Assembly (NCBI GenBank): GCA_009377445.1
Contig: WHUA01000004.1
Location: forward strand, 215,630-279,629
Length of the DNA: 64,000 nucleotides
Reading direction: 5' to 3'
DNA from: Alphaproteobacteria bacterium
GTDB taxonomy: Bacteria; Pseudomonadota; Alphaproteobacteria; UBA8366
A model generated the notes under the pieces. It saw nothing but the letters and a program-made list of their open reading frames with translations, did not search any database and was not told the DNA's origin. Position numbers and translations under genes: made by a program. Below, piece by piece: positions 10,615-60,068 of the stretch (positions are counted from its first letter, which is position 1; each line of letters begins with the position of its first letter).

Positions 10615-10659
10615 TGCGGAAACTCGGGTTACGTGTGGACCCTGACCGCCGGCTCTAAC

Positions 10660-13522: not shown

Positions 13523-13525
13523 ATC

Positions 13526-13771: not shown

Positions 13772-13805
13772 GGCACCGGCGCGGAGCCGATCAGGAGACC
13801 AGGCC

Positions 13806-36799: not shown

Positions 36800-36873
36800 T
36801 GGGGGATAGTTTAACGGTAGAACCGCGGACTCTGACTCCGCTAGTCCTGGTTCGAATCCAGGTCCCCCAGCCA
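36800..36873 (+). tRNA. tRNA-Gln (anticodon CUG)
   Basis: TGGGGGA-TA-GTTTAACGGTAGAAC-C-GCGGA-CTCTGAC-TCCGC-TAGT-CCTGG-TTCGAAT-CCAGG-TCCCCCA-G-CCA folds as a cloverleaf. Closely parallels E. coli tRNA-Gln. CCA is encoded. Confidence 0.9.
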
Positions 36874-36899: not shown

Positions 36900-37220
36900 C
36901 TAGTCTTCCATGCTGAGGGGTTTCGCCGCATTTTTCGCCGCATCCAGCGTCACGTCAGCAAAAGCGCACGCTCCGCCGCCGCAAGAGCCTCCGAAGTGTC
37001 GGTCTTCATCGAACGCATACCCGTCGATGCGGTAGCCCGCATTCCTGATCCGCCCCTCCTGATAGAGATCGAACGTGTTCTCAAGATGACCAGCATCTTC
37101 GAGGCGCTCAAGCAGGAATCGCGTAAACACCTCCTCAGTGAATGGTGCTTCGTCTGACAGACCCGCTTCGATTTCATGCACGATATTGGCGGCAAACTGG
37201 TGGAGGGAATCATCACTCAT
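36900..37220 (-). pseudogene. AIPR-family (abortive-infection) protein, N-terminal ~75 codons only
   Basis: MSDDSLHQFAANIVHEIEAGLSDEAPFTEEVFTRFLLERLEDAGHLEN..YQEGRIRNAGYRIDGYAFDEDR matches the N-terminal pattern I recall for AIPR proteins (normally >500 aa). The tail after DEDR is unrelated. Confidence 0.5.
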
Positions 37221-38197
37221 GCAGAGTCCTGCCTGCAGAAAAGATCGAGGATGTCGGCAGAATCAGCGGACAGGCCGGATATGGTGCGAAGGTCCAGAGC
37301 GTAGCTGGCATCCGTAACTGCCGGCGGGACTGCTGATCTCGTGAGCCGGGGAAACAGATCATCAATCGTGTAGCCTGAGATCTCCCTGAGCTGAAATAGG
37401 GGCTGAGAGCGGGACGCCATATCGTCCGGCATGAGACCTCGTCGAAGCAGCGCATTTTCGAAGGACCGCCGCGCCATTTCATCGGGAAGCAGCACGGCGA
37501 TATTCGCGATCAGGCCCTCCATCGACCTGCCGTCGGGCGCCTCTATCAGGCGAACGTGGAGCAGGTCAAGTCTTCTCAAGCCCGTGGTCTCAAGCTGGTC
37601 GAGCGAAGATATCCGGATCGCTGATGCTGGTCCGAGGCTGGCCTTGACCTCAACAGCGTGACCATTTTGGACGAAGTCATGGAGGCCGTCATCCGGGGCT
37701 TTCCAGCTGTTCTGCGCAGCAGGGTTGATGGATACCAGTCTTTCCAGGATGAGTAGCTCGCCAATGAGACCTATCGTCTCCTCGCGGGAAAGGCGGCTGC
37801 GGCGCTCGCGGAGGAACCGGCGCCAGGCATCGAGACGCGCGAGAAAGTACGCCAGCTCGTTGCCTAGCTCTGCGAAGGTGGAAGCCGAGATCGCATCGCC
37901 ACAGAGCGTGGTAAAGAGGTCGATACGGGTGCCATCTTCCAGCGACAGAACCATCATTGGCCCTTGCTCGTTGGCAGTAACGCCAAGGCGCATGCCGCCG
38001 ACCTCAAACAGGGAATCCGGTTGAGCCTCTGCATCTATGAGGAGGCAGGGTGCGTCATCAACGGACCGGAGCGCTGCATAGGCATCCAGGGCAAGTTCGT
38101 ATGACAGACGCCGTGTCCGGAACTGCCTCGCCTGAGGCGGATGTTGCCCAAGCTCGGTCCAGGCCTCCTGGAGGGTGTCGTGCCAGAGCGAGCTCAT
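37217..38197 (-). CDS. PD-(D/E)XK motif protein (DUF4420-like nuclease)
   Basis: 326 aa, apparently intact. ...WKAPDDGLHDFVQNGHAVEVKASLG gives the D...E-V-K nuclease motif. ATGA overlaps with both neighbours. Confidence 0.65.
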   Translation of the reverse strand: MSSLWHDTLQEAWTELGQHPPQARQFRTRRLSYELALDAYAALRSVDDAPCLLIDAEAQPDSLFEVGGMRLGVTANEQGPMMVLSLEDGTRIDLFTTLCGDAISASTFAELGNELAYFLARLDAWRRFLRERRSRLSREETIGLIGELLILERLVSINPAAQNSWKAPDDGLHDFVQNGHAVEVKASLGPASAIRISSLDQLETTGLRRLDLLHVRLIEAPDGRSMEGLIANIAVLLPDEMARRSFENALLRRGLMPDDMASRSQPLFQLREISGYTIDDLFPRLTRSAVPPAVTDASYALDLRTISGLSADSADILDLFCRQDSA

Positions 38198-38690
38198 ACC
38201 TGCTGCTCCCTCTGGCGTACAGGGTTTTCAAGATAGGAGCGTCGCCGTGCATTTTTGCTGTCGGGGAAGCTCACCACTACGCCGACGACGGGCCTGTCCG
38301 TATCGGCATTACCGACCTCAGGATCGAGAGGATAGATGATCAGCAGACCATTCTGGGGGCGTTCACCTCTGATTGTCCGGATATTGGGGCCAGATGGCCG
38401 ATCAATTGGGTCCTTGCCAACCAACTGCCTTTCCTGGTTTGTCTGCTTCAGTGCCCTCTCGTACTCCTCATCACTCAGATCGATAGCTTCATCAAGTGGG
38501 CTCAGTATCGATCTGATAATGTAGCGCTCAGCAACATCCCTGTCGGTGCGAGGCGAACGCCGGACACATCTGAACGTCCTGCCGCCAAGATTTGCCTCCA
38601 TGCCGTCAGCCGTCGGGAGAAAGACCGTCCAGGCCGTCAGCTCTTTTTCCCTGATCCGCTCGCCAATATACTGCGCCAGCTTCGGCCCCT
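38194..38690 (-). pseudogene. C-terminal fragment of the upstream operon partner (slot normally held by a Z1-domain protein)
   Basis: ORF 38194..38757(-) 'starts' at a TTG inside integrase-derived sequence. ...RYIIRSILSPLDEAIDLSDEEYERAL...NGLLIIYPLDPE. The Z1 identity is inferred from operon position only. Confidence 0.35.
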
Positions 38691-38695
38691 CGATC

Positions 38696-38902
38696 TCAAG
38701 GTTCTCCGGCGGGAATGAAAGATTCAGGAGAAACTCGACAATGTCCTGTCCAGGCAAACGTCATGATCTCCTTCACGTTGAACCCTTGCTCGATCCAGAG
38801 AGAAACCGCGAAATAACGAAGGTCGTGCCAGCGCAGCTCGACCCCGAGTTCGCGACATAATGGCTTGAACCGCCTTTTGAGGACGGTGGTGTGCGCCCTC
38901 AC
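38696..38902 (-). pseudogene. tyrosine recombinase/integrase, C-terminal fragment
   Basis: ...LGVELRWHDLRYFAVSLWIEQGFNVKEIMTFA.. is the box II region (HDLRH-like) of Tyr recombinases. No N-terminal or catalytic R-box part is present. Confidence 0.6.
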
Positions 38903-38924
38903 CCGTCCCCACTTGTTCGGGAAA

Positions 38925-39149
38925 CCGATCGTTACCGAGGCTGCTCATCCATTCGGCGTGACAGGCGACACGGGCGCGCCGGGCTTCCGTTCGCAGCATG
39001 TGGTGGAAAAGGATATTGTGCGTAAACACGATGACCTGCCGCCCCTTTGCCGCTTCTTCGGCTAGACGTTCGGCAACGGCCTGCATGCGCGTAGGCTGTC
39101 CGCTCCAATGGGTAGAGGTTGGGTGGGTGCTTATCCATGAACCGATCAA
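38925..39149 (-). pseudogene. AAA/ABC-type ATPase fragment (defence-associated type)
   Basis: ...AVAERLAEEAAKGRQVIVFTHNILFHHML... resembles the Walker-B-distal 'QVIVFTHD' region of RloA/PrrC-like ATPases. About 70 codons only. Confidence 0.4.
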
Positions 39150-39258
39150 ACCAGGTAGATTAACCCTTGATGGCCTCCTCGGCCCTATGTAGCAAACAAG
39201 CTCCTCTCATCCACTAGCGTCGCCATTGGGATTGGACAGATCTGAAAGGCAGTTACCG

Positions 39259-40548
39259 ATGACCGAACCAGCAGACCTCGACGTAACTTCAGCGTCCATA
39301 CTGATGGAGAAGGGAAAGTTAACGGCGGAGGCTCTGATGGCTTCATGCCTCGCTCGCGTCGATAAGCGCGAGGACGCGGTACGGGCATGGGCTTATATCG
39401 ACGCTGATCTGGCGATGGCCGCTGCCCGTGCATGTGATCGCGAAACGCGGCGCGGGCCGCTGCATGGCATCCCCATTGGCGTCAAGGACATCGTCGATAC
39501 GTCTGACATGCCAACGACCTATGGCTCGCCCATCTACAACGGTAACCAGCCGGCTGCTGATGCCGCGTGTGTTGCGCTCGCACGAGAGGCAGGGGCCGTT
39601 ATCATGGGAAAGACGGTGTCGACTGAATTTGCCACGCGCCATCCTGGAAAGACCCGAAACCCGCACAACGCCGCGCATACGCCCGGCGGTTCGTCGAGTG
39701 GTTCAGCGGCCGCCGTTGCCGATCACATGGTTCCAGCAGCGTTCGGCACGCAGACAACAGGGTCGGTTATTCGGCCATCTGCCTATTGCGGCATTGTGGG
39801 ATACAAGCCGACATTCGGGAAAATCAACCGGACAGGGGTAAAGCCCCTGTCTGATACAATGGACACGGTCGGACTCCATGCCCGATCTGTCCCGGACATC
39901 GCCCTGATCCTTTCGGTGATTTCCGGACAGTCTTTCCCGGACCTCAAGGTTGTAGCCGAGGAAATGCGCCCCTGGCGCATTGGGATTTGCCGGACTCCAT
40001 ACTGGGACCGCGCCGACGCCGCAACTCATGCGCTCCTCGACCAGGTCGCGGACCGATTGGGGCGTGCTGGCTCTAAAGTCCGGGAGGTTGTTCTGCCAGA
40101 ACCATTTCCGGATGCATTTCATGCCCAAGACGTGATCAACGAGTTCGACACATGGCGGGCGCTCGCATTCGAACGAACACGCCATCCGGAAAAGCTATCA
40201 ACGACGTTGTCTGAGCGACTGGCCCGTGCGGGGCGGCGCAGTGCAGCTGAGTACACCGCTGCGCATAACCTTGCGACCAAGTGTCGCGGACTTGCCGATG
40301 AAATGTACTCGGAATGGGATGTTCTTGTCGTGCCTGCCGCGCCCGGGGAGGCGCCCAACGGATTGGGTTCCACGGGCGACCCAATCTTCAACCAGCTTTG
40401 GACTCTTTTACACGGCCCGGCGGTTACTATACCGGCTGGCCATGGCCCTTCGGGATTACCCTTAGGCATACAGTTGGTTGGCCCCCGCGGTCATGATTTG
40501 CGGGTGCTCGCTTGTGCGAACTGGGCCGCAGATTTTTTGGCATGTTGA
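39259..40548 (+). CDS. amidase (amidase-signature family), copy 1
   Basis: ORF 39226.. begins at a TTG. ATG 39259 gives MTEPADL. LHGIPIGVKD, GGSSSGSAAAVA, GTQTTGSVIRPSAYCGIVGYKPT (Ser-cisSer-Lys triad context). Confidence 0.85.
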   Translation: MTEPADLDVTSASILMEKGKLTAEALMASCLARVDKREDAVRAWAYIDADLAMAAARACDRETRRGPLHGIPIGVKDIVDTSDMPTTYGSPIYNGNQPAADAACVALAREAGAVIMGKTVSTEFATRHPGKTRNPHNAAHTPGGSSSGSAAAVADHMVPAAFGTQTTGSVIRPSAYCGIVGYKPTFGKINRTGVKPLSDTMDTVGLHARSVPDIALILSVISGQSFPDLKVVAEEMRPWRIGICRTPYWDRADAATHALLDQVADRLGRAGSKVREVVLPEPFPDAFHAQDVINEFDTWRALAFERTRHPEKLSTTLSERLARAGRRSAAEYTAAHNLATKCRGLADEMYSEWDVLVVPAAPGEAPNGLGSTGDPIFNQLWTLLHGPAVTIPAGHGPSGLPLGIQLVGPRGHDLRVLACANWAADFLAC

Positions 40549-40867
40549 TCCCCAAGCCGTAACATGAGAAGCCATTCCTCAGTCTGCGGGCGGCAAATTT
40601 GAAGATGTCTGCAAATTGGCTATAGTCGCTATTGCAAGCGCGCAATGACCTGCGCGCTGCCAGACGCCTTCCCGGCCTCCGAACCCGATTTCGGCTGCCG
40701 ACAATAATTAGCGCACTCCGGTGCCATAACGGATCTGGCATTTTCATCCGCCACGCTCTCGCGGGCGATAGTGGGTCTAAGAATTTGCAATTGTTGATGC
40801 CGACGGGCCACCGGCAGCTTTGGGGAGTTTGCAGTCTTGCGTTCACGTAGCAGCATAGTTCTGATTT

Positions 40868-41821
40868 ATGGCTAACTATATTCTCCGGCGCCTTCTGTAT
40901 GCGATTCCGATTGCGATCGGCGTCACGGTCATTTGCTTTTCCCTGATTTATCTCGGACCAAGCGACCCGATAGCGGCGGTCATGCCAGACGAAGCATCCG
41001 CCGCAGACGTCCAGCGGATTCGCGAGGCTTACGGGTTCGACAAGCCGGTGCCGGTCCAGTATGCGCTATGGCTGATGCGCGCGGTGCAAGGCGATTTCGG
41101 TAATTCGCTGCAATCCAACCGGCCTGTCCTCGATGAACTAATCCCGGCGCTCCAAAACACCTTGCGCCTTGCCGTCTTCGCCGCCGCGCTGAGTTTCGCG
41201 ATTGCCGTCGTCGTCGGCAGCGTGGCTGCCTATTCTCAGGGAACCTGGCTCGACAAAACAGTGACGTCGTTCGCAATCACGGGGGTCAGCGTGCCCCATT
41301 ATTGGGTGGCGATCATGCTGGTCATTGTTTTCGCTGTCGAGCTCGGATGGCTTCCGGCCATGGGCATGGGTACGGGCAGCTCGCGCGACTGGGCCTGGGA
41401 CGCTGAACACATGAAGGCGCTCATACTGCCGGTAATCTCGCTTTCTCTAATTCCAGCCGGAATCATCACGCGCACCACCCGCGCAAGCGTCCTTGAAGTG
41501 CTGAGCCACGATTACGTCGAGACGCTACGCGCGAAGGGGCTGTCGGAAGCGACGGTGCTGCGCCACGTCCTGAAGAACGCCTCGCCGACCGTGCTCGCGG
41601 TGACGGGACTTCAGTTCGGCCATCTGCTGGGAGGCTCTATCCTCATCGAAACGGTTTTTGTCTGGCCGGGTACGGGCTTTCTGCTCAATGAATCCATTTT
41701 CAAGCGCGATCTGCCAGTGCTGCAGGGCACGATTCTCGTCCTCGCCATGTTCTTTGTTTTCGTGAATCTTACAGTGGATATCATGCAGACTTGGCTTGAT
41801 CCCCGCATCAAGAGAGACTGA
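40868..41821 (+). CDS. ABC transporter permease (DppB/OppB-like)
   Basis: 317 aa. MANYILRRLLYAIPIAIGVT..., ...DYVETLRAKGLSE, typical of peptide/nickel-type permeases. Confidence 0.9.
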   Translation: MANYILRRLLYAIPIAIGVTVICFSLIYLGPSDPIAAVMPDEASAADVQRIREAYGFDKPVPVQYALWLMRAVQGDFGNSLQSNRPVLDELIPALQNTLRLAVFAAALSFAIAVVVGSVAAYSQGTWLDKTVTSFAITGVSVPHYWVAIMLVIVFAVELGWLPAMGMGTGSSRDWAWDAEHMKALILPVISLSLIPAGIITRTTRASVLEVLSHDYVETLRAKGLSEATVLRHVLKNASPTVLAVTGLQFGHLLGGSILIETVFVWPGTGFLLNESIFKRDLPVLQGTILVLAMFFVFVNLTVDIMQTWLDPRIKRD

Positions 41822-41823
41822 TT

Positions 41824-42759
41824 ATGGTAGATACCAAATCCGTCGCTTGGACCGATAGCATGTCAGCTGACAGTGTGGCGGCTGCACAGGCCGGGGAGAT
41901 TCCCATCGGTCAGCTTCGGTCGCGCGGGTACTGGCGCTCCGTTTGGGTGCGCTTGCGCCGTGACAAGGTTTCCGTTGCCTGCGCCGCCGTCCTCATTCTG
42001 ATTGCGCTATCGGCGATTTTCGCCCCCCTGCTGTCGCCGCACGACCCATATCAAGGAAACGTCGTCAAGCGCCTGGCGCCGATCGGCACAGCCGGCTACC
42101 TACTCGGCACCGACGAACTGGGCCGCGATATGCTCTCTCGCTTGCTCTACGGCGGGCGCGTATCGCTCTTCATCGGGCTTTTCCCTGTCTTCTGCGCGCT
42201 CATTGTTGGCGGTACAGCCGGCATCGCCGCCGGTTTCATCGGAGGCCGGACCAACATGGCGATCATGCGCCTTATGGACGTTTTCTATGCGTTCCCGTCC
42301 ATCCTCCTGGCGATTGCGATTTCTGGTGCGCTGGGCGGCGGCTTCTCTAATGTCATCCTGGCACTGGCGCTGATCCTGGTTCCGCCGATCACGCGCGTCG
42401 CCGAAAGTGTGACGACCCAGGTTCGCAGTTACGACTTTGTGGAAGCTGCGCGGGCCAGCGGTGCTGGGACATGGACGATCATCCGTGTGCATGTGCTCAG
42501 CAACGTCCTTGGACCGATATTCATTTATACGACAAGTCTTATAAGCTTCAGCATCATCGTCGCCTCGGGCCTCAGCTTCCTCGGCCTCGGCGTCACGCCC
42601 CCGACGGCAGACTGGGGACTGATGCTGAGCACGCTACGCCAAGCGATCTGGATCAACCCTTATGCCGCGGCTCTTCCAGGTTTGATGATCTTCGTCACGT
42701 CCCTTTCCTTCAATCTGCTCAGCGACGGGCTGCGCAGCGCGATGGATGTGAGACTATGA
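41824..42759 (+). CDS. ABC transporter permease (DppC/OppC-like)
   Basis: 311 aa. ...LLGTDELGRDMLSRLLYG..., ...FVEAARASGAG. Confidence 0.9.
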   Translation: MVDTKSVAWTDSMSADSVAAAQAGEIPIGQLRSRGYWRSVWVRLRRDKVSVACAAVLILIALSAIFAPLLSPHDPYQGNVVKRLAPIGTAGYLLGTDELGRDMLSRLLYGGRVSLFIGLFPVFCALIVGGTAGIAAGFIGGRTNMAIMRLMDVFYAFPSILLAIAISGALGGGFSNVILALALILVPPITRVAESVTTQVRSYDFVEAARASGAGTWTIIRVHVLSNVLGPIFIYTTSLISFSIIVASGLSFLGLGVTPPTADWGLMLSTLRQAIWINPYAAALPGLMIFVTSLSFNLLSDGLRSAMDVRL

Positions 42760-43856
42760 GTGATTGCAGAAAGAACATTCGCCGCGAGCCCGTAACAACC
42801 TGCCCGCCGGCGCCGACGGAGAGCCAACCTTTATTATCTGTGAAGGGGCTGCGCAAATACTTCCCAGTAAAGGGAGGGCTTCTCAAACGGCAGATCGCCG
42901 CCATACAAGCAGTCGACGACGTGTCCTTCGAGGTCCGGCGGGGTGAGGTGCTGGGAATCGTCGGTGAATCCGGGTGTGGCAAGTCGACCACGGCCCGGCT
43001 CCTGATGCGGCTTATCGAACCGGACGCCGGGCAAGTGATCTTTGATGGCAAGGAGGTCGGCATGCGCGACGGCATGACAGTCACCGACCTGCGGCGTCAC
43101 GCTCAGATGGTGTTCCAAGACTCCTATTCCTCGCTCAATCCACGCCTTCCTGTGGAGGATACGATCGCCTTTGGCCCCGTGGTCCACGGCACAGCCAGAA
43201 GCAAGGCGAAGGAACGCGCGCGGTATCTCCTGAACGAAGTCGGGCTAGACCCATCTCGGTTTGGCAGGCGCTACCCGCACGAACTTTCGGGCGGTCAGCG
43301 TCAGCGCATCAACATTGCACGCGCGCTGGCGCTGCAGCCACAGATGGTCTTCCTGGACGAGGCCGTGTCCGCATTGGATAAGTCGGTGGAAGCGCAGGTA
43401 CTCAATCTCCTGCTTGATTTGCGGGAGGAATTCAATCTGACCTACGTCTTCATATCCCACGACCTCAACGTGGTTCAATACATCAGTGATCGCGTGCTTG
43501 TGATGTACCTCGGCAAGGTCGTGGAGGTCGGTCCTATTGGTGATGTGTATAAGGAACCGGCGCATCCCTACACCCACGCGCTGCTGTCTTCCCGTCCGTC
43601 GATGGACCCGGAGGACCGCAAAAAAGAGTCGCCGTTGTCTGGCGATCCGCCGACGCCGATCAATCCGCCGTCGGGCTGCCGCTTCAGAACCCGATGTGCA
43701 TTTGCCGAAGACGTGTGCGCAAGAGCCGTTCCCGCACTCACGCCGATTCGCGCCGACGGCAGTTGGCTGGCGGCCTGTCACATGATTATTCCCGGCTCGG
43801 GCCACAGCAGGGCTGCTGCCATTAATGAGGCAACGACCGGAGGCACGAATGGCTGA
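42756..43856 (+). CDS. ABC transporter ATP-binding protein (DppF/OppF-like)
   Basis: In frame in ORF 42471..43856. ATG 42756 overlaps the permease stop. GESGCGKST, LSGGQRQRINIARAL, C-terminal PPSGCRFRTRC. Confidence 0.9.
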   Translation: MSDCRKNIRREPVTTCPPAPTESQPLLSVKGLRKYFPVKGGLLKRQIAAIQAVDDVSFEVRRGEVLGIVGESGCGKSTTARLLMRLIEPDAGQVIFDGKEVGMRDGMTVTDLRRHAQMVFQDSYSSLNPRLPVEDTIAFGPVVHGTARSKAKERARYLLNEVGLDPSRFGRRYPHELSGGQRQRINIARALALQPQMVFLDEAVSALDKSVEAQVLNLLLDLREEFNLTYVFISHDLNVVQYISDRVLVMYLGKVVEVGPIGDVYKEPAHPYTHALLSSRPSMDPEDRKKESPLSGDPPTPINPPSGCRFRTRCAFAEDVCARAVPALTPIRADGSWLAACHMIIPGSGHSRAAAINEATTGGTNG

Positions 43857-44880
43857 GACAATGGGCCTCGTGCAAGACGTAAGCGCCACGCCTTCGAGAG
43901 TGCCGCCAATTGTGCAGGTCGATGACCTGCACGTTCGCTTCGTCAGCAAGGATGCCACCGTCTATGCGGTGAACGGCGTGAGCTTCACGCTCGACCCCGG
44001 CGAAGTGCTTTGTATTCTCGGCGAGTCCGGATCCGGCAAGAGCGTAACACTAAGGGCGCTTATGCGATTGCTGCCGCGCAAGCGCGCTGTCATCAATGGT
44101 CGCGTCATTGTCGACGGACACGACATCCTTTCGCTCTCGACCTCCGCCCTTTCCCGCGTACGGGGCGAGATTGTGTCGATGATCTTCCAGGAACCAATGA
44201 CGGCGCTCGACCCGGTTTATTCGATCGGGGAACAGATCACCGAGACCGTTCGTCGGCATGAGAAGATTGGCCGCGCGGCGGCCGAGGCGCGTGCGTTGGA
44301 GTTGCTCGAACTGGTTCAGATACCGTCTGCCAAGCGGCGCCTCAAAGCCTTTCCACACGAACTTTCAGGCGGACTACGTCAGCGGGCGATGATCGCGATC
44401 GCCCTTTCCTGCCGCCCGCGCGTTTTACTTGCCGACGAGCCGACAACCGCCCTCGACGCGACTGTGCAGATTCAGATCCTGCTGTTGCTGCGCCAGTTGC
44501 AAAAAGAGCTCGGGATGAGTGTCATATTCGTGACCCACGACCTCGGCGTAGCAGGTGAAATTGCCGATCGGATCACCGTCATGTATGGTGGCCGATTCGT
44601 CGAAGAGGGGCCGACGACCGCGGTTATGCGCGATCCGCTTCATCCCTATACCCGGGGTTTGCTTGCTTCCACGGTGCATGGACAGATGCACCGTGAGCGC
44701 CTGCGGACGATCGAAGGCTCGCCGCCGAACATGGAGATGCTGCCCGCCGCCTGTAGCTTCGCGCCGCGCTGTCGCTACGCCGTCGACAGATGCCTCGAGG
44801 GTGTGCCCGACCTGCACCGGCCATTTCCCAATCGCAGTGCCCGCTGCATCCGTCTCGAGGAAATCGGCTCAATGACGTGA
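43849..44880 (+). CDS. ABC transporter ATP-binding protein (DppD/OppD-like)
   Basis: ATG 43849 (GGAGG SD), 8-nt overlap with the previous gene. GESGSGKSV, LSGGLRQRAMIAIAL, ...PAACSFAPRC. Confidence 0.9.
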   Translation: MAETMGLVQDVSATPSRVPPIVQVDDLHVRFVSKDATVYAVNGVSFTLDPGEVLCILGESGSGKSVTLRALMRLLPRKRAVINGRVIVDGHDILSLSTSALSRVRGEIVSMIFQEPMTALDPVYSIGEQITETVRRHEKIGRAAAEARALELLELVQIPSAKRRLKAFPHELSGGLRQRAMIAIALSCRPRVLLADEPTTALDATVQIQILLLLRQLQKELGMSVIFVTHDLGVAGEIADRITVMYGGRFVEEGPTTAVMRDPLHPYTRGLLASTVHGQMHRERLRTIEGSPPNMEMLPAACSFAPRCRYAVDRCLEGVPDLHRPFPNRSARCIRLEEIGSMT

Positions 44881-44986
44881 TGTAAACCGGAACCACGCTT
44901 AGTACAGATTCCAAAGACGTATTGTTTGTACCGCTGTCCACGGAGTTTATGGAGTTCGCCCGCGCGAACGGAAAAGGATATCTGAA

Positions 44987-46645
44987 ATGCCCAACGCCCA
45001 ACAATCATCGGACACCGACCTGCATTCGTTGACGATTGCCGATGCCTCACGGCTGATCGAGCGCCGGAAGCTGTCACCGGTAGAGCTTACTGAAGCACGG
45101 CTGCGGCGGATCGAAGCCCTCGACCCGCAGCTCGACGCGTTTATCACGCTCACGGCGGAGCGTGCGATCGATGAGGCCCGGAATGCCGAACGTGAGATCG
45201 TGGCAGGCAAATATCGCGGGCCGTTGCACGGCATTCCCTTTGCCCTCAAGGATATCTATTGCACCAAGGGGATTCTGACCACCGGCCATTCCAAGATTTG
45301 CGCTAATTTCGTGCCGAACGAGGATGCGACGACCGTGCGCAAGTTGAGCGAGGCGGGCGGTGTCCTGTTCGGCAAGCTGGCAACGCATGAATTCGCCCAC
45401 GGCGGCCCTTCCTTCGACCTGCCTTGGGCGCCGGCGCGCAACCCCTGGAACCGCGAGCACTTTACCGGCGGATCATCGAGCGGCTCAGGCGCCGCGGTTG
45501 CCGCCGGCTTCGTCATGGGGGCCATGGGCTCGGATACGGGTGGCTCGATTCGCAACCCCGCCGCGCTGTGCGGGCTCGTCGGATTGAAGCCGACCTACGG
45601 CCTCGTGAGCCGGTATGGCATCTATGCCAATTCCTTTACCTATGACCATGCCGGCCCGCTTACATGGAGCGTGGAGGACTGCGCGATCATGATGCAGACG
45701 CTCGCCGGCCACGATGTGTGCGACCCGGCGAGCGCGGACCGGCCCGTGCCTGACTATCGGGCGGATCTGACGAAGGACATCAAAGGCCTGAAGATTGGCG
45801 TCTTGCGTTATTTCTACGAAGAGGACGTGCCGGTTGCCGCCGCCACGAAGCAGGCGCTAGAGGCCGCCTATGACGTACTGAAGTCGTTGGGCGCAATTCT
45901 CGAGGATGTGCGCATCCGGCCGGCTCAGGATTACTACGACGTCAAGATCGTGTCGGCCGAATCCGAGCTCTTCGCCGTCCACGATCGCAATCTGCGCACA
46001 CGTGCGGGCGACTTCGGGGAGGATTTCCTCGGCCGATCGCTCGCTGCAATTTTCGTCCGCGGCGGTGACTATGTCCAGGCAATGCGGGAACGCCGCCGCA
46101 TGGTTGCCGAGATGGCCCCGATCTACGAGAAATACGACCTTCTCCTTACGGCCGCCCCCGGCCCGGCGCCACGCTTCGAGGCTTGGCGTACAATCCACTT
46201 CTGGCAGAAGCCATCGTTGACGACGCCATTCAACGTCACGGGCGGGCCGGCGCTAGTCCAGTGCATCGGCTTCACGAGCGACGGGCTACCGTTGTCGATG
46301 CAATTTGTTGGGCGGCCTTTTGATGACGCCTTGGTGATGCGCGTTGCCCACGCTTATGAACAGGCGACGCCGTGGCGCAAACGCCGGCCGGCGCTCGATC
46401 CGTCTGCTGCATTCTCCGCCGACCTGCCGCCTCTGCCGGCACCGGAAAAGGCGACGATCAGCGAGCGCGAAAGGGACGAAGTTGCGGTCATTTGTCGGCG
46501 TGCCGGCCTCAATCTCAGCGAGCGGGTATTCGAGCAACTGTGCGCGACCGCACCCTACATCGAGGCGATGGTCGGGCGTCTGCGCCGCGACCGCACCTTC
46601 GCCGAAGAGCCAATGAACGTGTTCCAATTTCCCAGCCACGGCTAG
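44987..46645 (+). CDS. amidase (amidase-signature family), copy 2, with ~80-aa C-terminal GatC/AtzG-like extension
   Basis: 552 aa. LHGIPFALKD, GGSSSGSGAAVA, GSDTGGSIRNPAALCGLVGLKPT. Extra tail ...RRAGLNLSERVFEQLCATAPYIEAMVGRLRRDRTFAEEPMNVFQF. Confidence 0.85.
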   Translation: MPNAQQSSDTDLHSLTIADASRLIERRKLSPVELTEARLRRIEALDPQLDAFITLTAERAIDEARNAEREIVAGKYRGPLHGIPFALKDIYCTKGILTTGHSKICANFVPNEDATTVRKLSEAGGVLFGKLATHEFAHGGPSFDLPWAPARNPWNREHFTGGSSSGSGAAVAAGFVMGAMGSDTGGSIRNPAALCGLVGLKPTYGLVSRYGIYANSFTYDHAGPLTWSVEDCAIMMQTLAGHDVCDPASADRPVPDYRADLTKDIKGLKIGVLRYFYEEDVPVAAATKQALEAAYDVLKSLGAILEDVRIRPAQDYYDVKIVSAESELFAVHDRNLRTRAGDFGEDFLGRSLAAIFVRGGDYVQAMRERRRMVAEMAPIYEKYDLLLTAAPGPAPRFEAWRTIHFWQKPSLTTPFNVTGGPALVQCIGFTSDGLPLSMQFVGRPFDDALVMRVAHAYEQATPWRKRRPALDPSAAFSADLPPLPAPEKATISERERDEVAVICRRAGLNLSERVFEQLCATAPYIEAMVGRLRRDRTFAEEPMNVFQFPSHG

Positions 46646-46722
46646 TTCCAGACCATCGCCGCGGCTGCGCCGACGGCGTGAGTCGCGCACGCAAGTAACG
46701 AATGCGACATCAATGAAGGAGT

Positions 46723-48342
46723 ATGGTTATGAATGGAAGTTTTAGACGCCTGACGGTAGGAATCGGCCTCGCAGCGGCGTTTGCCGCATTTTCCAGTTCG
46801 AGCGTTCAAGCGGAAGGAACGCTCACGCTGGGCATGACAGTCGCGGATATCCCGAGCTCTAAGGGGGCCCCAGATCAGGGTGCGGAAGGTATCCGCTGGA
46901 TGGGCTTCACGGTTTATGACTCACTTGTCTACTGGAACCTGAACCAGAGCAAGACCATTCCGGTAATCGTGCCGGCGCTCGCGCACAAATTTTACCCCAA
47001 CCCGGAAAACAACAAAGAATGGATCTTCGAGCTGCGGAAAGACGTGACCTTCCACGACGGCTCCAAATTCAATGCCGATGCGGTAATCTGGAATCTCGAC
47101 AAGCTATTCAAGGAGAAGGCGCCACAGTACGACCTGCAGCAGCGGCGTGCCGTCGCGTGGCGGCTTGCGGGTATAAAGACTTGGCGCAAGATCGATGATT
47201 ACAAGGTCGCTATCGGCGACAATGTGCCGAATGCGTTGATCCCGCATCAAATCGTCTATGTTCACATATCAAGCCCGAAACACTGGGCAGACGTGGGCGG
47301 TTGGGAAGCATTCGCCAAGCATCCTTCGGGCACGGGTCCGTTCAAGGTCGAGGAGATTGTGCCCCGCGAGCGCGCCGTGCTTGTGCGCAATGACAACTAC
47401 TGGGACAAGGACCGCATCCCGAAACTCGACAAGGTGATTCTCTTGCCGATGCCCGAGGCGAGCACGCGAACGGCGGCGATCCTATCCGGGCAGGCTAACT
47501 TTATAGAAGCGCCGTCGCCGGATGCGGTCCCCCGGCTTAAGTCTTCGGGAATGCAAATCATAACCAACCCCTACCCGCATGTTTGGCCATATGTATTGCG
47601 ACTGGCCGGCGAGAATACGCCGATGAAGGATGTACGCGTCCGCAAAGCGCTGAACCTCGCCATAGACCGCGACGCCATTGTCCAGCTGTTGCGGGGAATG
47701 GCTGTTCCGGCCAAGGGCCACGTCCTTCCCGACAGTCCCTGGTTCGGCAATCCCAGTTTCAAGATCGAATACAATCCGGAAAAGGCCAAGGCGCTGCTCA
47801 AGGAAGCCGGCTACGGCCCCGACAAGCCGCTGAAGATCAAATTCATGATCTCGACATCCGGCTCCGGTCAGATGCAGCCGATGCCAATGAACGAGCTCGT
47901 TCAACAGCAGCTGAAAAAGGTCAATGTCGACCTCTCGTTCGAGGTGACCGAGTGGCAAGCGCTGCGCGCCCAACGCGGCAAGGGACCACTTGATCCCGGC
48001 GCACGCGAGATCCACGCTCTCAACAACAGCTTTGGGACTTATGACCCATACAGTGCGTTCGAGCGATTCTTCAGCTGTGACCTGTTGCCGCCAAAGGGTT
48101 TGAACTGGGCGGGCGTTTGCGACGACGAGATACAGGCGCTGATAAAAAAGATCAAAGAGACCTTTGATCCCAAGGAGCAAGACGAGCTCTTGGCAAAGAT
48201 CCACGAGCACGTTGTCGATAACGCATACTGGGTTTGGGTGGTGCACGATGTGAATCCGCGGGCGCTTCGTCCCGAGGTCAAGGGATTCCGACAGGCAAAG
48301 AGCTGGTACCAGGACCTCACCCAGATCTACATCGAAAAGTAG
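46723..48342 (+). CDS. ABC transporter substrate-binding protein (family 5, peptide/nickel type)
   Basis: 539 aa. Signal peptide ...AAFAAFSSSSVQA. ...WIFELRKDVTFHDGSKFNADAVIWN... The ATG at 46729 has better SD spacing (GAAGGAG). Confidence 0.9.
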   Translation: MVMNGSFRRLTVGIGLAAAFAAFSSSSVQAEGTLTLGMTVADIPSSKGAPDQGAEGIRWMGFTVYDSLVYWNLNQSKTIPVIVPALAHKFYPNPENNKEWIFELRKDVTFHDGSKFNADAVIWNLDKLFKEKAPQYDLQQRRAVAWRLAGIKTWRKIDDYKVAIGDNVPNALIPHQIVYVHISSPKHWADVGGWEAFAKHPSGTGPFKVEEIVPRERAVLVRNDNYWDKDRIPKLDKVILLPMPEASTRTAAILSGQANFIEAPSPDAVPRLKSSGMQIITNPYPHVWPYVLRLAGENTPMKDVRVRKALNLAIDRDAIVQLLRGMAVPAKGHVLPDSPWFGNPSFKIEYNPEKAKALLKEAGYGPDKPLKIKFMISTSGSGQMQPMPMNELVQQQLKKVNVDLSFEVTEWQALRAQRGKGPLDPGAREIHALNNSFGTYDPYSAFERFFSCDLLPPKGLNWAGVCDDEIQALIKKIKETFDPKEQDELLAKIHEHVVDNAYWVWVVHDVNPRALRPEVKGFRQAKSWYQDLTQIYIEK

Positions 48343-48422
48343 CCGTTCCGGTTGGCAATGGTGGAAGGCCGCTCCTGGAGGAGCGGCCTTCCGGCCGGCT
48401 CAGCTCGTTGGTGGAGTATGCA

Positions 48423-48629
48423 ATGACGAAAGTATCAGGCGAACTTATCCGCTTGCAAGGAACTCAGCTTCAAGCGAGGACGATTGAACCGGTTCGCGCG
48501 GTGGAGTTGGCGGCGGAACTGGCAGCCATGCACGACGCCGTGTCGAAGGCTGCGGGCGACCTTGGTTTTGATGATGAGCCAAGCGATTTCCAGCAGGCTC
48601 TTTTGCGAAACTCGCGCAAAGAAGGGTAG
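48423..48629 (+). CDS. small (68 aa) GatC/AtzG-like putative amidase partner
   Basis: In frame at the end of ORF 48234..48629. GGTGGAG SD 6 nt before the ATG. Stop is 5 nt before the amidase-3 ATG. ...AAGDLGFDDEPSDFQQAL echoes the EP-x2-F tail of amidase 2. Confidence 0.5.
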   Translation: MTKVSGELIRLQGTQLQARTIEPVRAVELAAELAAMHDAVSKAAGDLGFDDEPSDFQQALLRNSRKEG

Positions 48630-48634
48630 ACGCG

Positions 48635-50050
48635 ATGGCGAACTCCGACGTGTTGGATATGAGCTTGGCAGATGTTGGGGACGCAATCCGGCGGCGTATC
48701 ATTTCTTCCGAGGAAGTCACGCAGGCCTGTATCGAGCGGGCCCAGGCTACGCAATCAACGGTAAACGCGTTCATTTCGTTGGAAGCCGATGAGGCGCTCG
48801 CAACAGCCCGCGCATTGGATGCCGAGTTGAAGCAGGGGAAGATCAGGGGGCCGCTTCACGGCGTGCCACTGGCGCATAAGGACATGTTCTATCGAAAGGG
48901 ACGTGTCGTCACCTGCGGCTCTACAATCCGGCGGGATTTCGTCCCGGATATAACGGCGACCGTTATCGCACGTCTGGAGGAGGCCGGCGCTGTCTATCTC
49001 GGCGGACTCAATATGTCGGAGTTTGCGGGCGGACCCACCGGTCACAACGAGCATTTCGGAGATTGCTGCAATCCCTGGAATCCTCAACATGTCAGCGGTG
49101 GATCTTCCAGCGGTTCGGCAGCGGCCGTGGCCGCCCGCGCAGCGTATGGTGCGCTCGGATCCGATACCGGTGGCTCCATCCGAATACCTGCCGCATGCTG
49201 CGGGGTCGTAGGCCTAAAACCCACCTACGGCCTCATCAGCCGACACGGCGCGATGCCCCGCTCCTGGTCGCTCGATCACATGGGGCCGCTTACGCGCACG
49301 GTGCGCGACTGCGCTCTCATGACCCAGGTCGTCGCCGGCGCCGATCCAACAGACGCGACGACAAATCCCCTGCCCGTGCCCAATTACGAAGCGGCGCTCA
49401 CTCGTGAGGTAAAAGGACTGCGCATAGGCACGCCGGTGAATTACTTCTTCGACGATTGTGAAGGCGAGGCGCGCGCCATATTCGATCAAGCCCTTGAGAT
49501 GCTAGCGGCGCTGGGCGCGAAAGTCGTGAAACTCGAGTTCCCCGCGCCGGTCACCATGGCGCGCATGAACGACACAATTTCGAAGGCGGAGGCCGCGACC
49601 ATACACCGAAAATGGATGGCTGCGCGGCCGGACGACTATGGCCACCATGTCTTCGCCCGTGTCGAAGCGGGCTTCCACATTCCCGCAACCCAGTACATCG
49701 AGGCACTCGCAATGCGAGGCCGATATACTGAGCAGGTATGTAAAGATGTGTTCGGAAATTGCGATGCTTTCCTGGCGCCTGTATTGCCGTTTCCGGCCCC
49801 GCTACGCACGGAGACTGCGTTCGGAAACGCCTCCGACGTGCCGCAACTAATTGCCCGCATGACATACCGGACGCGCCCATTCTGTTATCTTGGCTTGCCG
49901 GCTCTAAGTATCCCTGTTGGATTCACCGCTTCGGGTCTCCCGCTCGGGATGCAACTCGTTGGCCGCCCATTCGACGAGGCGACCCTGTTTGCAATAGGCC
50001 ATGCCTACCAGTCAGAAACAGATTGGCACAAAGTTGGTCCGTCTATTTGA
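48635..50050 (+). CDS. amidase (amidase-signature family), copy 3
   Basis: 471 aa. LHGVPLAHKD, GGSSSGSAAAVA, GSDTGGSIRIPAACCGVVGLKPT. Confidence 0.85.
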   Translation: MANSDVLDMSLADVGDAIRRRIISSEEVTQACIERAQATQSTVNAFISLEADEALATARALDAELKQGKIRGPLHGVPLAHKDMFYRKGRVVTCGSTIRRDFVPDITATVIARLEEAGAVYLGGLNMSEFAGGPTGHNEHFGDCCNPWNPQHVSGGSSSGSAAAVAARAAYGALGSDTGGSIRIPAACCGVVGLKPTYGLISRHGAMPRSWSLDHMGPLTRTVRDCALMTQVVAGADPTDATTNPLPVPNYEAALTREVKGLRIGTPVNYFFDDCEGEARAIFDQALEMLAALGAKVVKLEFPAPVTMARMNDTISKAEAATIHRKWMAARPDDYGHHVFARVEAGFHIPATQYIEALAMRGRYTEQVCKDVFGNCDAFLAPVLPFPAPLRTETAFGNASDVPQLIARMTYRTRPFCYLGLPALSIPVGFTASGLPLGMQLVGRPFDEATLFAIGHAYQSETDWHKVGPSI

Positions 50051-50093: not shown

Positions 50094-50309
50094 ATGTGCG
50101 GCGCGAAATCATCGGGTGAACCGATTGGACTCTGGGCGCGGCGCTGGATCGCTGACATGCGCAATTTCTCGGCGATGAACGAAGTCTGGGACGCCTGGAT
50201 CAATCCGGCCAACCCGCCGGTGCGCGCCGGTCCGTGCAACGCGCGTATCGCCCCCGACTTGATCGGGCTACCAGCCATCCGAATCAGCCCCTACTGTCTC
50301 GATGTTTAA
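50094..50309 (+). pseudogene. RidA/YjgF-family protein, C-terminal fragment
   Basis: ...IADMRNFSAMNEVWDAWINPANPPVRAG... matches the RidA C-terminal 'dm.dFaamNevy..f....PaR' pattern. No N-terminal half is present. Confidence 0.45.
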
Positions 50310-50644
50310 CTAGTCGTCCGTTAATAAGCCGGAATTTGCGCGGATTGGATAGCGAAGGGCGCTGATAGCGCGGCGTAGATTAGGCGCAAGAGCGCCCTCA
50401 GCCAGGCGAGGACGAGGCGGAAGTTGTATCCTCGCCTTTATCCAACAGCAAACGACCGCCGTCCCGGGCGGGGACGACGGTACGTTCTTGATGGTTGCGG
50501 GGGCGCGAAACCACCGAGAGCCATACTCGCTTCTCGTGTCGGTATGAGCCAGCGTTCCTGGACCGCTGCTTAATATGCTACCCTCCGGCGCTCCCAAGGC
50601 GCTGCCACCTTAGGTCCTCAGCGGCAATCGGTACACTCTCGGAA

Positions 50645-50833
50645 TTACCGGGGCCTCTGGCGTGAGGCGGCGGTGTCGTGCACGAGATGGCCGTGATCTG
50701 CGCGCGTGTTGAGGACTGTCAGCCGCCGGCGGCGGCGGTGACCGGGCGACTCGATCAGCACGGCGTTGCGATTCTTGGCGATGTCGACTGCTACCAACCC
50801 GGCATCGGCAGGCGTAGGCTCTCTTCTGGTCAT
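50645..50833 (-). mobile_element. IS110-family transposase, N-terminal ~50 codons only
   Basis: MTRREPTPADAGLVAVDIAKNRNAVLIESPGHRRRRRLTVLNTRADHGHLV resembles the IS110 N-terminus (vGiDvaK....v.....f.N...G). GGAGA SD. The rest of the gene is absent. Confidence 0.5.
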
Positions 50834-50893
50834 CGCCGGTCTGTCTCCATGGTGAGGCTTCGACACCGTCACAGTTAGAGACCTCTCGATTTT

Positions 50894-51068
50894 GTGGTCA
50901 TTGGAACTCCCATGCATAACTTCACCGTACCCTCTGCGCTGAAGGCGTGGATAGATCACATCGTTCGAGTTCGTCGGACGTTCAATGTAACCGCGGAAGG
51001 GAAGGTAGGCACGCTTCGCGACCGTCCAGTCTTTGTCGCCGTATCCTCAGGCGGAAGATATTCCGGGG
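50894..51068 (+). pseudogene. FMN-dependent NADH-azoreductase (AzoR) internal fragment
   Basis: VIGTPMHNFTVPSALKAWIDHIVRVRRTFNVTAEGKVGTLRDRPVFVAVSSGGRYSGE is the AzoR core. It abuts the IS110 end on the left and an unrelated gene on the right. Confidence 0.6.
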
Positions 51069-52361
51069 AGTGTCAACGGCGGAGCAATTCCAGGCCAGCG
51101 CGGCGGAGTAAAAGCAGGCCACTGGCGTGCACTCGCCAACTTTGGCGGCGGGTACCTTGTCTTCGGCATCAATGACGATACGACATCCGCCGGCTCATGC
51201 CCGGCAACCGCAGCAGGATCCTACGACCAGGATACGCTGTCTGGCATCATCAAGCGCTACCTGACGCCTACGTTTCAGGTGGCGGTCTACGAGGTAAACT
51301 CGGCCGCCACAGGGGTAACGCATCCCGTGGTCTGGGTCCCGTCCCACGAGGCGGTGCCCGTATGCAGCACTCGCGACGGGCCGCATAGCGGTGGTAAACC
51401 GGTCGGTATCGTACAGGGAACCTACTACACCCGCGCACCCGGCCCCGAATCCGTGTCAGTTGCCACGCCAGAGCTCTGGGCGCCGATCATCCGGCGGTGC
51501 GTCTTACATGAACGCCATGCCCTGCTTGCTGGCCTTGAACCGCTACTACGATCTCCCGGCCGCCCCGTCACCGAACCGGACGCACCGCTTCGGCTTTGGC
51601 ACGACGCTGCGCACTCGCGCTTTCTTCAACTCGCGGATGTCGATCCGCTTGCCGACCAACTTAAACGCGCCCACTACCAATTTACCTATCAGATCAATGT
51701 CGCCGACGGGTACCAGCTCGACATGGCGAGACTCCTGGACGAACTGAGGCGCATGGGCCACGAGGTGCAAGACCTCGTTGATCCGGGTTGGACGATGTTC
51801 TGGATCTTCGATGTACAGGAACTTGCGCCGCGCTCTGCCGGAGACGCCGCTCTCGGTGACGCCGAGTTTCTGGAATGCAGTCTGATCAAACCGCATATCG
51901 TCGAAATGACATTGCCGGACTTCTGGCGGGTTGCGCCCACCGGTATGGCTACGATTATCCGTCCGTATCGCGAAGACCGACGCAATACCGGTCCCGACCA
52001 TAAGCCAGGTACATGGCTGTGGCCTCATGTCATGGCCCGCGAGATTGTCGAGGTGATCCGGCATGCCCGCGCCTTTGCCGAACGGTTCGAGGCACCCGAG
52101 AGCGTGTCCTTGCGTGCCGAGTGGCTTGGTCTACAGGGCAGGACACTTAAGGATCCGGACAATCCGCTCTTCAGGTGGCAAGGCCGGCTCGCTCAAAGCG
52201 ACAGTCGCGTCGTCACCCGGACGGTACCCATCGCCGACCTGACCACCCGTTGGGCAGACGTAACGGCGGACATGCTTTCTGCGGTTACACGCATGTTCGA
52301 CGCGGTACTTTCCATATCGCCCCAGGAAGTCCTTGTCTGGTCGAAGAGATTTCGCAGGTGA
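51069..52361 (+). CDS. AlbA_2/Schlafen-like domain protein with unknown ~280-aa C-terminal domain (5' end apparently truncated)
   Basis: ORF 51033..52361. ...WRALANFGGGYLVFGINDD...GIVQGTYYTRAPGPESV matches the AlbA_2 core (AfaNt.GG.l.iGv.d; yiR.gs). The first ~25 aa of the domain are missing at the AzoR junction. Confidence 0.5.
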   Translation, partial: SVNGGAIPGQRGGVKAGHWRALANFGGGYLVFGINDDTTSAGSCPATAAGSYDQDTLSGIIKRYLTPTFQVAVYEVNSAATGVTHPVVWVPSHEAVPVCSTRDGPHSGGKPVGIVQGTYYTRAPGPESVSVATPELWAPIIRRCVLHERHALLAGLEPLLRSPGRPVTEPDAPLRLWHDAAHSRFLQLADVDPLADQLKRAHYQFTYQINVADGYQLDMARLLDELRRMGHEVQDLVDPGWTMFWIFDVQELAPRSAGDAALGDAEFLECSLIKPHIVEMTLPDFWRVAPTGMATIIRPYREDRRNTGPDHKPGTWLWPHVMAREIVEVIRHARAFAERFEAPESVSLRAEWLGLQGRTLKDPDNPLFRWQGRLAQSDSRVVTRTVPIADLTTRWADVTADMLSAVTRMFDAVLSISPQEVLVWSKRFRR

Positions 52362-52363
52362 CG

Positions 52364-52969
52364 ATGGGCACGGCATTTCATACTGCGGACTGGCATGTCT
52401 ACGCCGCCCTTGGCGCCGTGCTCGTGCTGGGCCTCGCACGGATGCTCCGAAGGCTGTGGCGTACCTCGGGCGACTATATGTTCGCCAACGAGTTTCGCGA
52501 CAATTTCATCTCCTACTGTAATAGCCAGGGCGAGTATCACGCCCGCTTTGACTGGCTGATGCGGCATTCCAACCGTATGCAGACGGACATGGGTACGTAC
52601 GGCATCTACGGCTCGTACAAACCGCCGTTTGCCAACTACGCTTATACGAACTATCCGATCATCCTCAACATGCTGCCGGAGCTCCGAAGCTACATCGAGC
52701 GAGAATTCGGCGGCACGCTTCACGGTGAGACTATCGCCGGCTTCATGCGCGCTATCGATGAGGCAAACCGACCGCCGGCTGACCCCACCACCTCGCCTCG
52801 CTTGCCCCCGTGGGCCCACAGGACCCTCCCACGCGCGCCGCCGCGTCAGCCCATCGAGAGACACGCCGCGGCGCGCGCGGGTCCCTCCCGTGGACTACGG
52901 GGACAAGCCTCAAGCACCGAGTGGCCCAATCTTATGCCGCCACATGGCCCCTTTTTGCTCCGCCGTTGA
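52364..52969 (+). CDS. small membrane protein, hypothetical (C-terminal limit uncertain)
   Basis: ATG 52364, 2 nt after the previous stop. MGTAFHTADWHVYAALGAVLVLGLARMLRRLW (1 TM) then ...FANEFRDNFISYCNSQGEYHARFDWLMRHSNRMQ. After ~aa 135 the frame becomes P/R-rich, probably non-native. Confidence 0.4.
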   Translation: MGTAFHTADWHVYAALGAVLVLGLARMLRRLWRTSGDYMFANEFRDNFISYCNSQGEYHARFDWLMRHSNRMQTDMGTYGIYGSYKPPFANYAYTNYPIILNMLPELRSYIEREFGGTLHGETIAGFMRAIDEANRPPADPTTSPRLPPWAHRTLPRAPPRQPIERHAAARAGPSRGLRGQASSTEWPNLMPPHGPFLLRR

Positions 52970-55643: not shown

Positions 55644-55715
55644 TACTTTCTCCTATTCAGCTCGTTCGCCTGGACCGTTCCGGGCATTTCTGATCTCGAA
55701 TGGTGAGGGGCGCTG

Positions 55716-56195: not shown

Positions 56196-56228
56196 GTCAC
56201 GATACTCGACCGACGCGCATCGTTTCGC

Positions 56229-59335: not shown

Positions 59336-59338
59336 GGC

Positions 59339-59938: not shown

Positions 59939-60068
59939 ATCGAACCCGGTGAGCCTCAGGTTTCCTGAGCTTGAAGACTCTTCCATATGTGGCGCTCACT
60001 TAGCGAGCAGACGCAAAGCATGCCGTCCGATTGAAGAGTGCGCATCCTCCCCAACTACCGCCAAAAAT

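Follow-up and report, generated by a model that had tools for sequence, protein, structure and literature searches.

A cassette of nine genes on the forward strand of the 64,000-nucleotide (nt) stretch analysed here, referred to below as the window (positions 215,630 to 279,629 of contig WHUA01000004.1), combines three amidase signature (AS) enzymes with a complete family-5 ATP-binding cassette (ABC) importer and a small protein of 68 amino acids (aa), and forms a discrete, conserved and horizontally mobile unit. In order, the genes encode amidase 1, two permeases, two ATPases, amidase 2, a periplasmic binding protein, the small protein and amidase 3 (Table 1). The source record, a metagenome-assembled genome of an 'Alphaproteobacteria bacterium', lists their products as MPY74566-MPY74574, the 68-aa protein being annotated 'hypothetical protein'. 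We think it somewhat more probable than not that the cassette is a self-contained, transferable nutrient-scavenging unit, through which a soil alphaproteobacterium imports a small, carboxylated primary amide and releases ammonia from it. Its parts are of known kinds, and together they make up an uncharacterised addition to the 'amidase plus importer' class.

The cassette as a conserved, mobile unit

The same nine genes are found, colinear with the whole cassette and at 92.7% nt identity over 10.9 kb, at positions 4204-15107 of a Logan contig (L091). An ENA contig (L082) has the identical gene order, at 73.6% nt identity over 9.3 kb plus 1.3 kb, and the same left end, and the architecture is repeated on a JGI contig. 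The left edge of homology lies 24 nt before the ATG of amidase 1, and the right edge falls exactly at the stop codon of amidase 3 (L091) or no more than about 20 nt from it. Four genomic contexts of the cassette are known (the window, L091/L092, L082/L083 and the JGI contig), all with sharp ends and with differing flanks: in L091, for example, a mechanosensitive-channel gene lies on one side and aroA-cmk-rpsA on the other, and there is a tRNA gene about 110 nt downstream. When the window is compared with L082, with synonymous sites near saturation and dS saturated for the binding protein, the ratio of nonsynonymous to synonymous substitution (dN/dS) is 0.04-0.20 for the six genes for which it could be computed, including the open reading frame (ORF) for the small protein (0.20). 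The genes of the cassette behave as one unit under purifying selection.

Among 185,579 species genomes, one per species, the closest relative of amidase 3 is only 55% identical, so the cassette is rare among sequenced species; its parts are common in metagenomes. A search of a plasmid collection returned no near-identical DNA.

Three further features of L082 were noted. A gene for a fourth AS amidase (1068-2501; 477 aa, 32% identical to amidase 1) has its stop codon abutting the left end of the cassette; a gene for an IS110-family transposase (13659-14537) lies about 300 nt past the right end; and the genes for the F-type ATPase and amidase 2 look frameshifted, probably through assembly errors.

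The three amidases

A sequence-only reading of this DNA had described three AS enzymes interleaved with a complete importer of two permeases, two ATPases and one binding protein, the ATPase genes standing in F-then-D order with an 8-nt overlap, and had proposed an uncharacterised module for amide hydrolysis and uptake. Each of these statements is borne out. Its reference to Rhizobiales finds no confirmation in the source record, which gives the organism only as an 'Alphaproteobacteria bacterium'. All three amidases belong to the AS superfamily: their Pfam Amidase (PF01425) scores are far above the gathering cut-off of 27 bits, each contains GGSSSGS, in agreement with the superfamily motif GGSS[GS]GS, and the Lys/cis-Ser/Ser triad is intact in all of them, K76, S145 and S169 (amidase-1 numbering) being invariant in an alignment that includes AtzE. 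They are divergent paralogues, with pairwise identities of 30-38%. An Arg that in amidase 3 aligns with R358 of GatA is kept in all three and in AtzE, a hint at the nature of the substrate. The binding protein has a signal peptide, and the three amidases have none.

No amidase reaches an NCBIfam equivalog cut-off, and none falls in a characterised orthologous group. Against TIGR00132 (GatA) they score 200, 300 and 324 bits, where 481 are needed; against TIGR02713 (allophanate hydrolase) they score 160-215 bits, where 511 are needed, and their matches to the 563-position model do not extend beyond its amidase part. Of the families named as candidates in the sequence-only reading, AtzE, AtzF, allophanate hydrolase and GatA all fail as assignments on NCBIfam scores. 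Peptide amidase (1m21) is a solved relative of all three enzymes, at E = 1e-38 to 1e-51.

The nearest solved relative of amidase 1 is malonamidase E2 (E = 3.5e-82), with about 40% identity from end to end. Residues K62, S131 and S155 of malonamidase E2 are all conserved in amidase 1, as is its GSVIRP motif with Arg158, reported to be the carboxylate-binding residue (Shin et al. 2002). No link of malonamidase E2 to an ABC importer or to further amidases is known. The top NCBIfam match of amidase 1 reaches 236 bits against a cut-off of 532, and there is no malonamidase model among the best 25 of the 26 NCBIfam matches listed. Amidase 1 further resembles malonamidase E2 (from Bradyrhizobium japonicum; PDB 1OCK and others) in its similar size and in having no helper subunit, but about 40% identity is too low for a shared substrate to be inferred.

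For amidase 3 the top NCBIfam match is the AtzE family, with 348.3 bits against NF006631 (cut-off 461) and 336.9 bits against TIGR02715 (cut-off 425.75); identity to AtzE of pADP-1 is 34%. Aligned with GatA of Staphylococcus aureus, amidase 3 keeps the Arg at R358, has Thr at Asp425 and shows a deletion at Tyr309. In the light of the GatCAB structures, this state argues against free glutamine as the substrate and fits an amide that bears a carboxylate.

A small partner encoded upstream of amidase 3

Helper subunits of AS enzymes had been mentioned in the sequence-only reading, but the 68-aa ORF was missing from its gene list and the module fused to amidase 2, described below, was overlooked. 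Among the loci retrieved with amidase 3, most homologues with 40-55% identity are accompanied by an ORF of 55-85 aa that ends at, or overlaps, the amidase start, and the members of this small-ORF family have a C-terminal F-(D/E)-x-E-P-x-x-F motif. At more distant loci (34-37% identity to amidase 3) the upstream ORF is a true GatC of 95 aa. With a profile (A1) built from 27 ORFs upstream of amidase-3 homologues, an ORF that stops where the homologue begins is picked up at about 50 loci; around half of these loci had contributed to the profile. The family has no significant match among Pfam, NCBIfam or PDB profiles, GatC appearing only at E = 0.71. When the neighbours of amidase-3 homologues were clustered, no recurrent partner was found except the small ORF. 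At four loci (L028 7308-10001, L034 7035-10001, L042 and L044) the profile of the small subunit matches the C-terminal end of a long stop-free stretch upstream of the amidase, which could be read-through in high-GC DNA or a small-subunit domain fused to an upstream protein.

The arrangement is that of atzG-atzE(-atzH) in Proteobacteria, where the gene for a small, non-catalytic protein of 68 aa likewise directly precedes that for an AS amidase derived from GatA (AtzEG structure 6C62). On pADP-1 a 2-nt gap separates atzG from atzE; here the gap before amidase 3 is 5 nt. The differences are that AtzG is not detectably similar to the small protein of the cassette, that AtzH, AtzD and AtzF are absent, and that the cassette encodes a second amidase with a C-terminally fused helper. 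Clusters of the atzG-atzE type, often situated beside ABC transporters and further amidases, have been described and read as serving the catabolism of nitrogen compounds (Esquirol et al. 2018, PMC6219798), which agrees with an interpretation of the cassette in terms of amide uptake.

Amidase 2 carries a fused helper domain

GatA is the top solved relative of both amidase 2 and amidase 3 (E = 1e-83). The tail of amidase 2 is about 80 residues longer than those of amidases 1 and 3, and reads RAGLNLSERVFEQL...RLRRDRTFAEEPMNVF. It is conserved throughout the amidase-2 family, which comprises over 120 clusters (69% identity or above), all of 540-561 aa. In profile-profile comparison the tails match the family of free small ORFs with a probability of 80% (E = 1.4e-5), and with more sequences the probability rises to 89% (E = 2e-6, over 60 columns). 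Amidase 2 is a fused form, since its C-terminal 65 residues are homologous to the small-subunit family. When residues 470-552 were searched with phmmer against 1.84 billion representatives, 121 proteins were found, many of them free proteins of 55-82 aa with proper N-termini. The gene for one of these, P0348 (68 aa), shares 4 nt with the start of that for a 465-aa amidase with a core 54% identical to that of amidase 2, and the pair is a split version of amidase 2. The position of the helper is permuted between the two forms: it is an upstream gene when free and C-terminal when fused.

The tail aligns by hhalign with GatC without a gap over GatC residues 4-52, including the 'EP' motif (E = 3.5e-4, probability 37%). 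In the AlphaFold 2 (AF2) model it forms a helical hairpin, with helices at 493-505 and 512-532 and predicted local distance difference test (pLDDT) values of 89-94. The cassette resembles GatCAB in its GatA-like amidases 2 and 3 and in this helper domain, and differs from it in that both amidases miss the gatA cut-off, that there is no ORF of GatB type, and that the helper has no counterpart to the C-terminal half of GatC.

The genes of the split form, the free 68-aa protein and the 465-aa amidase (L094 1990-6904), are flanked by one for a gamma-glutamyltransferase and one for an M20 peptidase, an arrangement that recalls the ggt-atzG-atzE-atzH order reported for Enterobacteriaceae (PMC6219798).

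The importer and its gene order

The importer has the five components of Dpp/Gsi/Nik-type (family 5, PepT) systems: an SBP_bac_5 receptor, two BPD_transp_1 permeases and two ATPases with oligo_HPY domains, the first scoring as DppF/OppF-type and the second as OppD-type. It reaches no equivalog cut-off; the DppA_dipep score is 103 bits, against a cut-off of 1005. The nearest solved structure to the binding protein is DppA (E = 1.6e-32). Unlike DppA, the binding protein lacks the peptide-anchoring residues, both the Asp408 and the Arg355 positions being occupied by Gly in what is a low-identity alignment; taken from such an alignment, this would speak mildly against ordinary dipeptides as ligands.

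Whereas Dpp/Gsi/Nik-type importers are encoded in the order A-B-C-D-F, that of the cassette is B-C-F-D-amidase-A. The sequence-only reading had called this layout unusual, but it is not peculiar to the locus. In L033, L082, L085-87 and L090, genes for homologues of the binding protein (46-92% identity) are associated with AS amidase genes. In L085, L086 and L087 a gene of amidase-2 type (about 540 aa) stands directly upstream of the binding-protein homologue (62-70% identity), and in L087 the two overlap by 4 nt; the F-then-D order of the ATPases recurs in L033, L085 and L086. The gene order is a lineage trait of the transporter. The same transporter lineage occurs with an amidase of type 3 and a small ORF in L033 (Ferrovibrio), and with two amidase-1-type genes in L090. 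Each of the three types being associated separately with this importer lineage elsewhere, the cassette in the window can be said to unite them. The amidase types are also found together beside transporters of TctC or NMT1 type: amidase 1, small ORF and amidase 3 in L007, amidases 1, 2 and 3 in L045, and two of amidase-1 type with amidase 2 in L093. In L084 a homologue of the binding protein stands alone.

In the operons of more distant relatives of the transporter (L090 9001-19081 and L085 10313-12278) there is a gene for an AbrB-family (PF05145) membrane protein, joined in L090 by one for a TauE/SafE-type anion exporter, and genes for GntR regulators lie near such loci. The AbrB and TauE neighbours might point to export of an anionic product. 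The acesulfame (ANSA) amidase was considered as a lead and set aside, as it belongs to a different system with another type of transporter.

Expression of the cassette

The B-C-F-D genes of the importer are translationally coupled, their junctions being a 2-nt gap, a 4-nt overlap and an 8-nt overlap; the remaining intergenic gaps are of 319, 106, 83, 80 and 5 nt. Because homology among the copies starts 24 nt before its gene, amidase 1 must use the upstream promoter of each host. Promoter-like hexamers in the 319-nt gap after amidase 1 (Table 1) are partly kept in L082 although the remainder of the gap is not alignable, and this lends slight weight to a putative promoter at this site. Promoter and terminator scans of the region gave counts not above those of shuffled sequence, and an Rfam search of 36.5-51.5 kb yielded tRNA only, with no riboswitch in the 319-nt gap. 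GntR or LysR genes are found near related loci.

Proposed function

In the scheme that we favour, the Dpp/Nik-type importer would bring a small, probably carboxylated amide compound into the cytoplasm, where the three Ser-cisSer-Lys amidases would cleave primary amides of this compound, of its breakdown products, or of both. The freed ammonia would supply nitrogen, and the carboxylic acids would pass into central metabolism. Amidase 2, as the presumed ancestral partner of the transporter lineage, would be the best candidate for the first step, with amidases 1 and 3 providing added steps or added range beside it. By analogy with AtzE-AtzG and GatA-GatC, amidase 3 may act in complex with the 68-aa protein encoded upstream, amidase 2 carries the same helper module at its own C-terminus, and amidase 1 would probably finish the half-amide of a dicarboxylic acid. 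Import direction, cytoplasmic hydrolysis, complex formation, the order of steps, the identity of the substrate and co-transcription we infer. That each amidase type is tied to the same transporter lineage fits a role for all three on the imported compound or its products, and a sequential deamidation of the substrate would be plausible.

The amidases might instead work in parallel, the importer taking up several related amides and each enzyme serving one member of the set, so that the cassette would confer range rather than a pathway. We regard this as unlikely, although the modular look of the loci gives it some appeal: the amidase types occur singly with the same transporter lineage in L033, L085-87 and L090, and the fourth amidase upstream of the L082 copy has the appearance of accretion. 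The co-occurrence of the types near unrelated transporters (L007, L045 and L093) is easier to understand if they share one pathway, and a late step is suggested for amidase 1 by its likeness to a half-amidase whose substrate is a small dicarboxylate monoamide. The Dpp/Opp-type transporter, with DppA as the nearest solved binding protein, and the presence of peptide amidase among the solved relatives of amidases 1-3 could also be taken to mean that C-terminally amidated peptides, or di- or tripeptides containing Asn or Gln, are imported and trimmed by peptide-amidase-like enzymes. This is improbable in view of the Gly residues at both positions that anchor the peptide termini in DppA (subject to the low identity of that alignment), of the absence of a peptidase gene from the cassette, and of the rank of peptide amidase, which for each of the enzymes comes far behind GatA, AtzE and malonamidase. 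Still less credit, and indeed very little, can be given to the cassette as a segment of an s-triazine, biuret or ureide pathway, in which amidase 3 and the small ORF would be a true AtzE-AtzG pair followed by an allophanate-type activity. AtzE is certainly the top NCBIfam family of amidase 3, and both the small-then-amidase layout and the 68-aa length of the partner are those of atzG-atzE; but amidase 3 scores under both AtzE cut-offs and is only distantly identical to AtzE, no AtzD, AtzH/NTF2 (DUF3225) or AtzF domain is encoded in or beside the cassette, and the allophanate hydrolase cut-offs are missed, the C-terminal domain of that enzyme being absent.

Several results weigh against the proposal of a nutrient-scavenging unit. 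Identity of the amidases to their closest characterised relatives is only 34-40%. The match of the small subunit to AtzG by hhalign is not significant (probability 4.5% with A1, 22 columns being in register, and 0.3% with A6), and the similarity of the helper to GatC is weak, at a non-significant 2.7% with A1 and at the 37% quoted above with the amidase-2 tails. Taken as a whole, the AF2 model of amidase 2 is of mediocre quality (mean pLDDT 70). Amidase-3 homologues have heterogeneous neighbours except for the small ORF; enzymes of this type are therefore versatile and their context is little guide. As the sequence-only reading had stated, no ORF in the block encodes a DNA-binding domain, and the cassette is without a regulator; the 319-nt gap after amidase 1 suggests two or more transcripts; and the pattern of a nitrogen-control promoter of sigma-54 type has fewer matches than expected by chance, none of them upstream of cassette genes.

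A bolder proposal is that the cassette is a complete route for a common but unrecognised multi-amide nitrogen compound of soil, and that its GatA-like amidases expose a broad, unannotated family of 'GatC-relic' helpers. We put it forward only tentatively, and consider it rather doubtful. If it were true, such helpers, whether free (55-82 aa, with no Pfam model) or C-terminal on amidases of about 550 aa, would be obligatory for folding or activity, and many proteins called 'amidase' or 'GatA' would be hetero-oligomers or self-complemented enzymes of transamidosome descent. Soil metagenomes frequently contain the cassette and its parts, labelled with no more than generic names such as 'amidase' or 'GatA', and knowledge of the substrate would add a route for the mineralisation of organic nitrogen. 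By analogy with AtzE, which needs AtzG, enzymes of amidase-3 type probably need the overlooked 68-aa partner for soluble expression, whereas those of amidase-2 type have a helper built in. The occurrence of GatC-like helper modules in both split and fused form is a modest but useful addition, and offers a natural experiment on the retention of a vestigial GatC-like subunit after an enzyme has left the transamidosome. No major concept is changed; annotation is refined.

Genomic surroundings

The cassette lies in lower-GC island DNA, as the sequence-only reading had it: between about 37 and 55 kb the GC content is 0.58-0.62, compared with 0.66-0.69 in the flanks. The island begins at a tRNA-Gln (CTG) gene (36800-36873), directly after which are the remains of an Mza-type defence system that abut the cassette (Table 1). 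The start of the cassette is where the N-terminal 650 or so residues of MzaC would be expected.

Table 1. Positions in the window of the cassette, its genes and the neighbouring features
Feature	Position	Strand	Evidence or remark
Whole cassette, nine genes	39235-50050	+	Colinear copies in L091 and L082, flanks unrelated
Amidase 1, 429 aa, malonamidase-E2-like stand-alone AS enzyme	39259-40548	+	Pfam Amidase 261 bits
Promoter-like site TTGAAG-16-TATAGT, gap between amidase 1 and DppB-like permease (319 nt)	40599-40626	+	Consensus scan
Permease, DppB/NikB-like, 317 aa	40868-41821	+	BPD_transp_1 and BPD_transp_1_N; 87% aa identity to L082; dN/dS 0.04
Permease, DppC/NikC-like, 311 aa	41824-42759	+	OppC_N and BPD_transp_1; dN/dS 0.06
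ATPase, DppF/OppF-like, 366 aa	42756-43856	+	ABC_tran and oligo_HPY; top NCBIfam NF008453/OppF; 4-nt overlap with DppC-like permease gene
ATPase, OppD-like, 343 aa	43849-44880	+	ABC_tran and oligo_HPY; top NCBIfam OppD NF007010; 8-nt overlap with F-type ATPase gene; dN/dS 0.07
Amidase 2, 552 aa, GatA-like AS core and C-terminal extension	44987-46645	+	Pfam Amidase 341 bits, residues 33-450
Fused GatC/AtzG-like small-subunit domain, residues 488-552 of amidase 2	46448-46642	+	Profile-profile match to free small-ORF family
Family-5 periplasmic binding protein, 537 aa, signal peptide	46729-48342	+	SBP_bac_5 267 bits
Small subunit gene, 68 aa, stop 5 nt before amidase 3	48423-48629	+	Gene call in two sources
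Amidase 3, 471 aa, AtzE/GatA-like AS enzyme	48635-50050	+	Pfam Amidase 379 bits
AIPR_N fragment	36900-37220	-	Mza remains
MzaD/DUF4420, apparently intact	37217-38197	-	Mza remains
Two C-terminal pieces of MzaC	38194-38757, 38724-39149	-	Mza remains
RidA C-terminal fragment, 71-aa ORF	50094-50309		Ribonuc_L-PSP 19 bits, under the 27.3-bit cut-off
Flavodoxin_2/FMN-reductase fragment	50894-51175		Downstream debris
442-aa ORF, weak Schlafen AlbA_2 match	51033-52361		Downstream debris
Amidohydrolase fragment	52629-53693		Downstream debris
SDR, apparently intact	54876-55643	-	Higher-GC run
Cyclophilin-like protein, apparently intact	55716-56195	-	Higher-GC run
Xanthine-dehydrogenase/CO-dehydrogenase-family molybdoenzyme, three subunits, apparently intact	56229-58340, 58337-59335, 59339-59986	-	Higher-GC run

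Downstream of the cassette the debris at 50094-53693, made up of RidA, flavodoxin-fold, Schlafen-like and amidohydrolase remnants, is present in none of the other cassette copies. The RidA relic pointed out in the sequence-only reading is there as a weak match, but the connection then drawn from it to a pathway releasing imine or enamine intermediates is not supported: since the relic lies beyond the conserved cassette and the other copies lack it, it is uninformative on the pathway. A candidate IS110 fragment at 50645-50959 on the reverse strand was set aside as unconfirmed, having no Pfam match, and the IS110 transposase of L082 has no tblastn match in the window. Beyond the debris, a higher-GC run (54876-59986) holds apparently intact genes for an SDR, a cyclophilin-like protein and a three-subunit molybdoenzyme.

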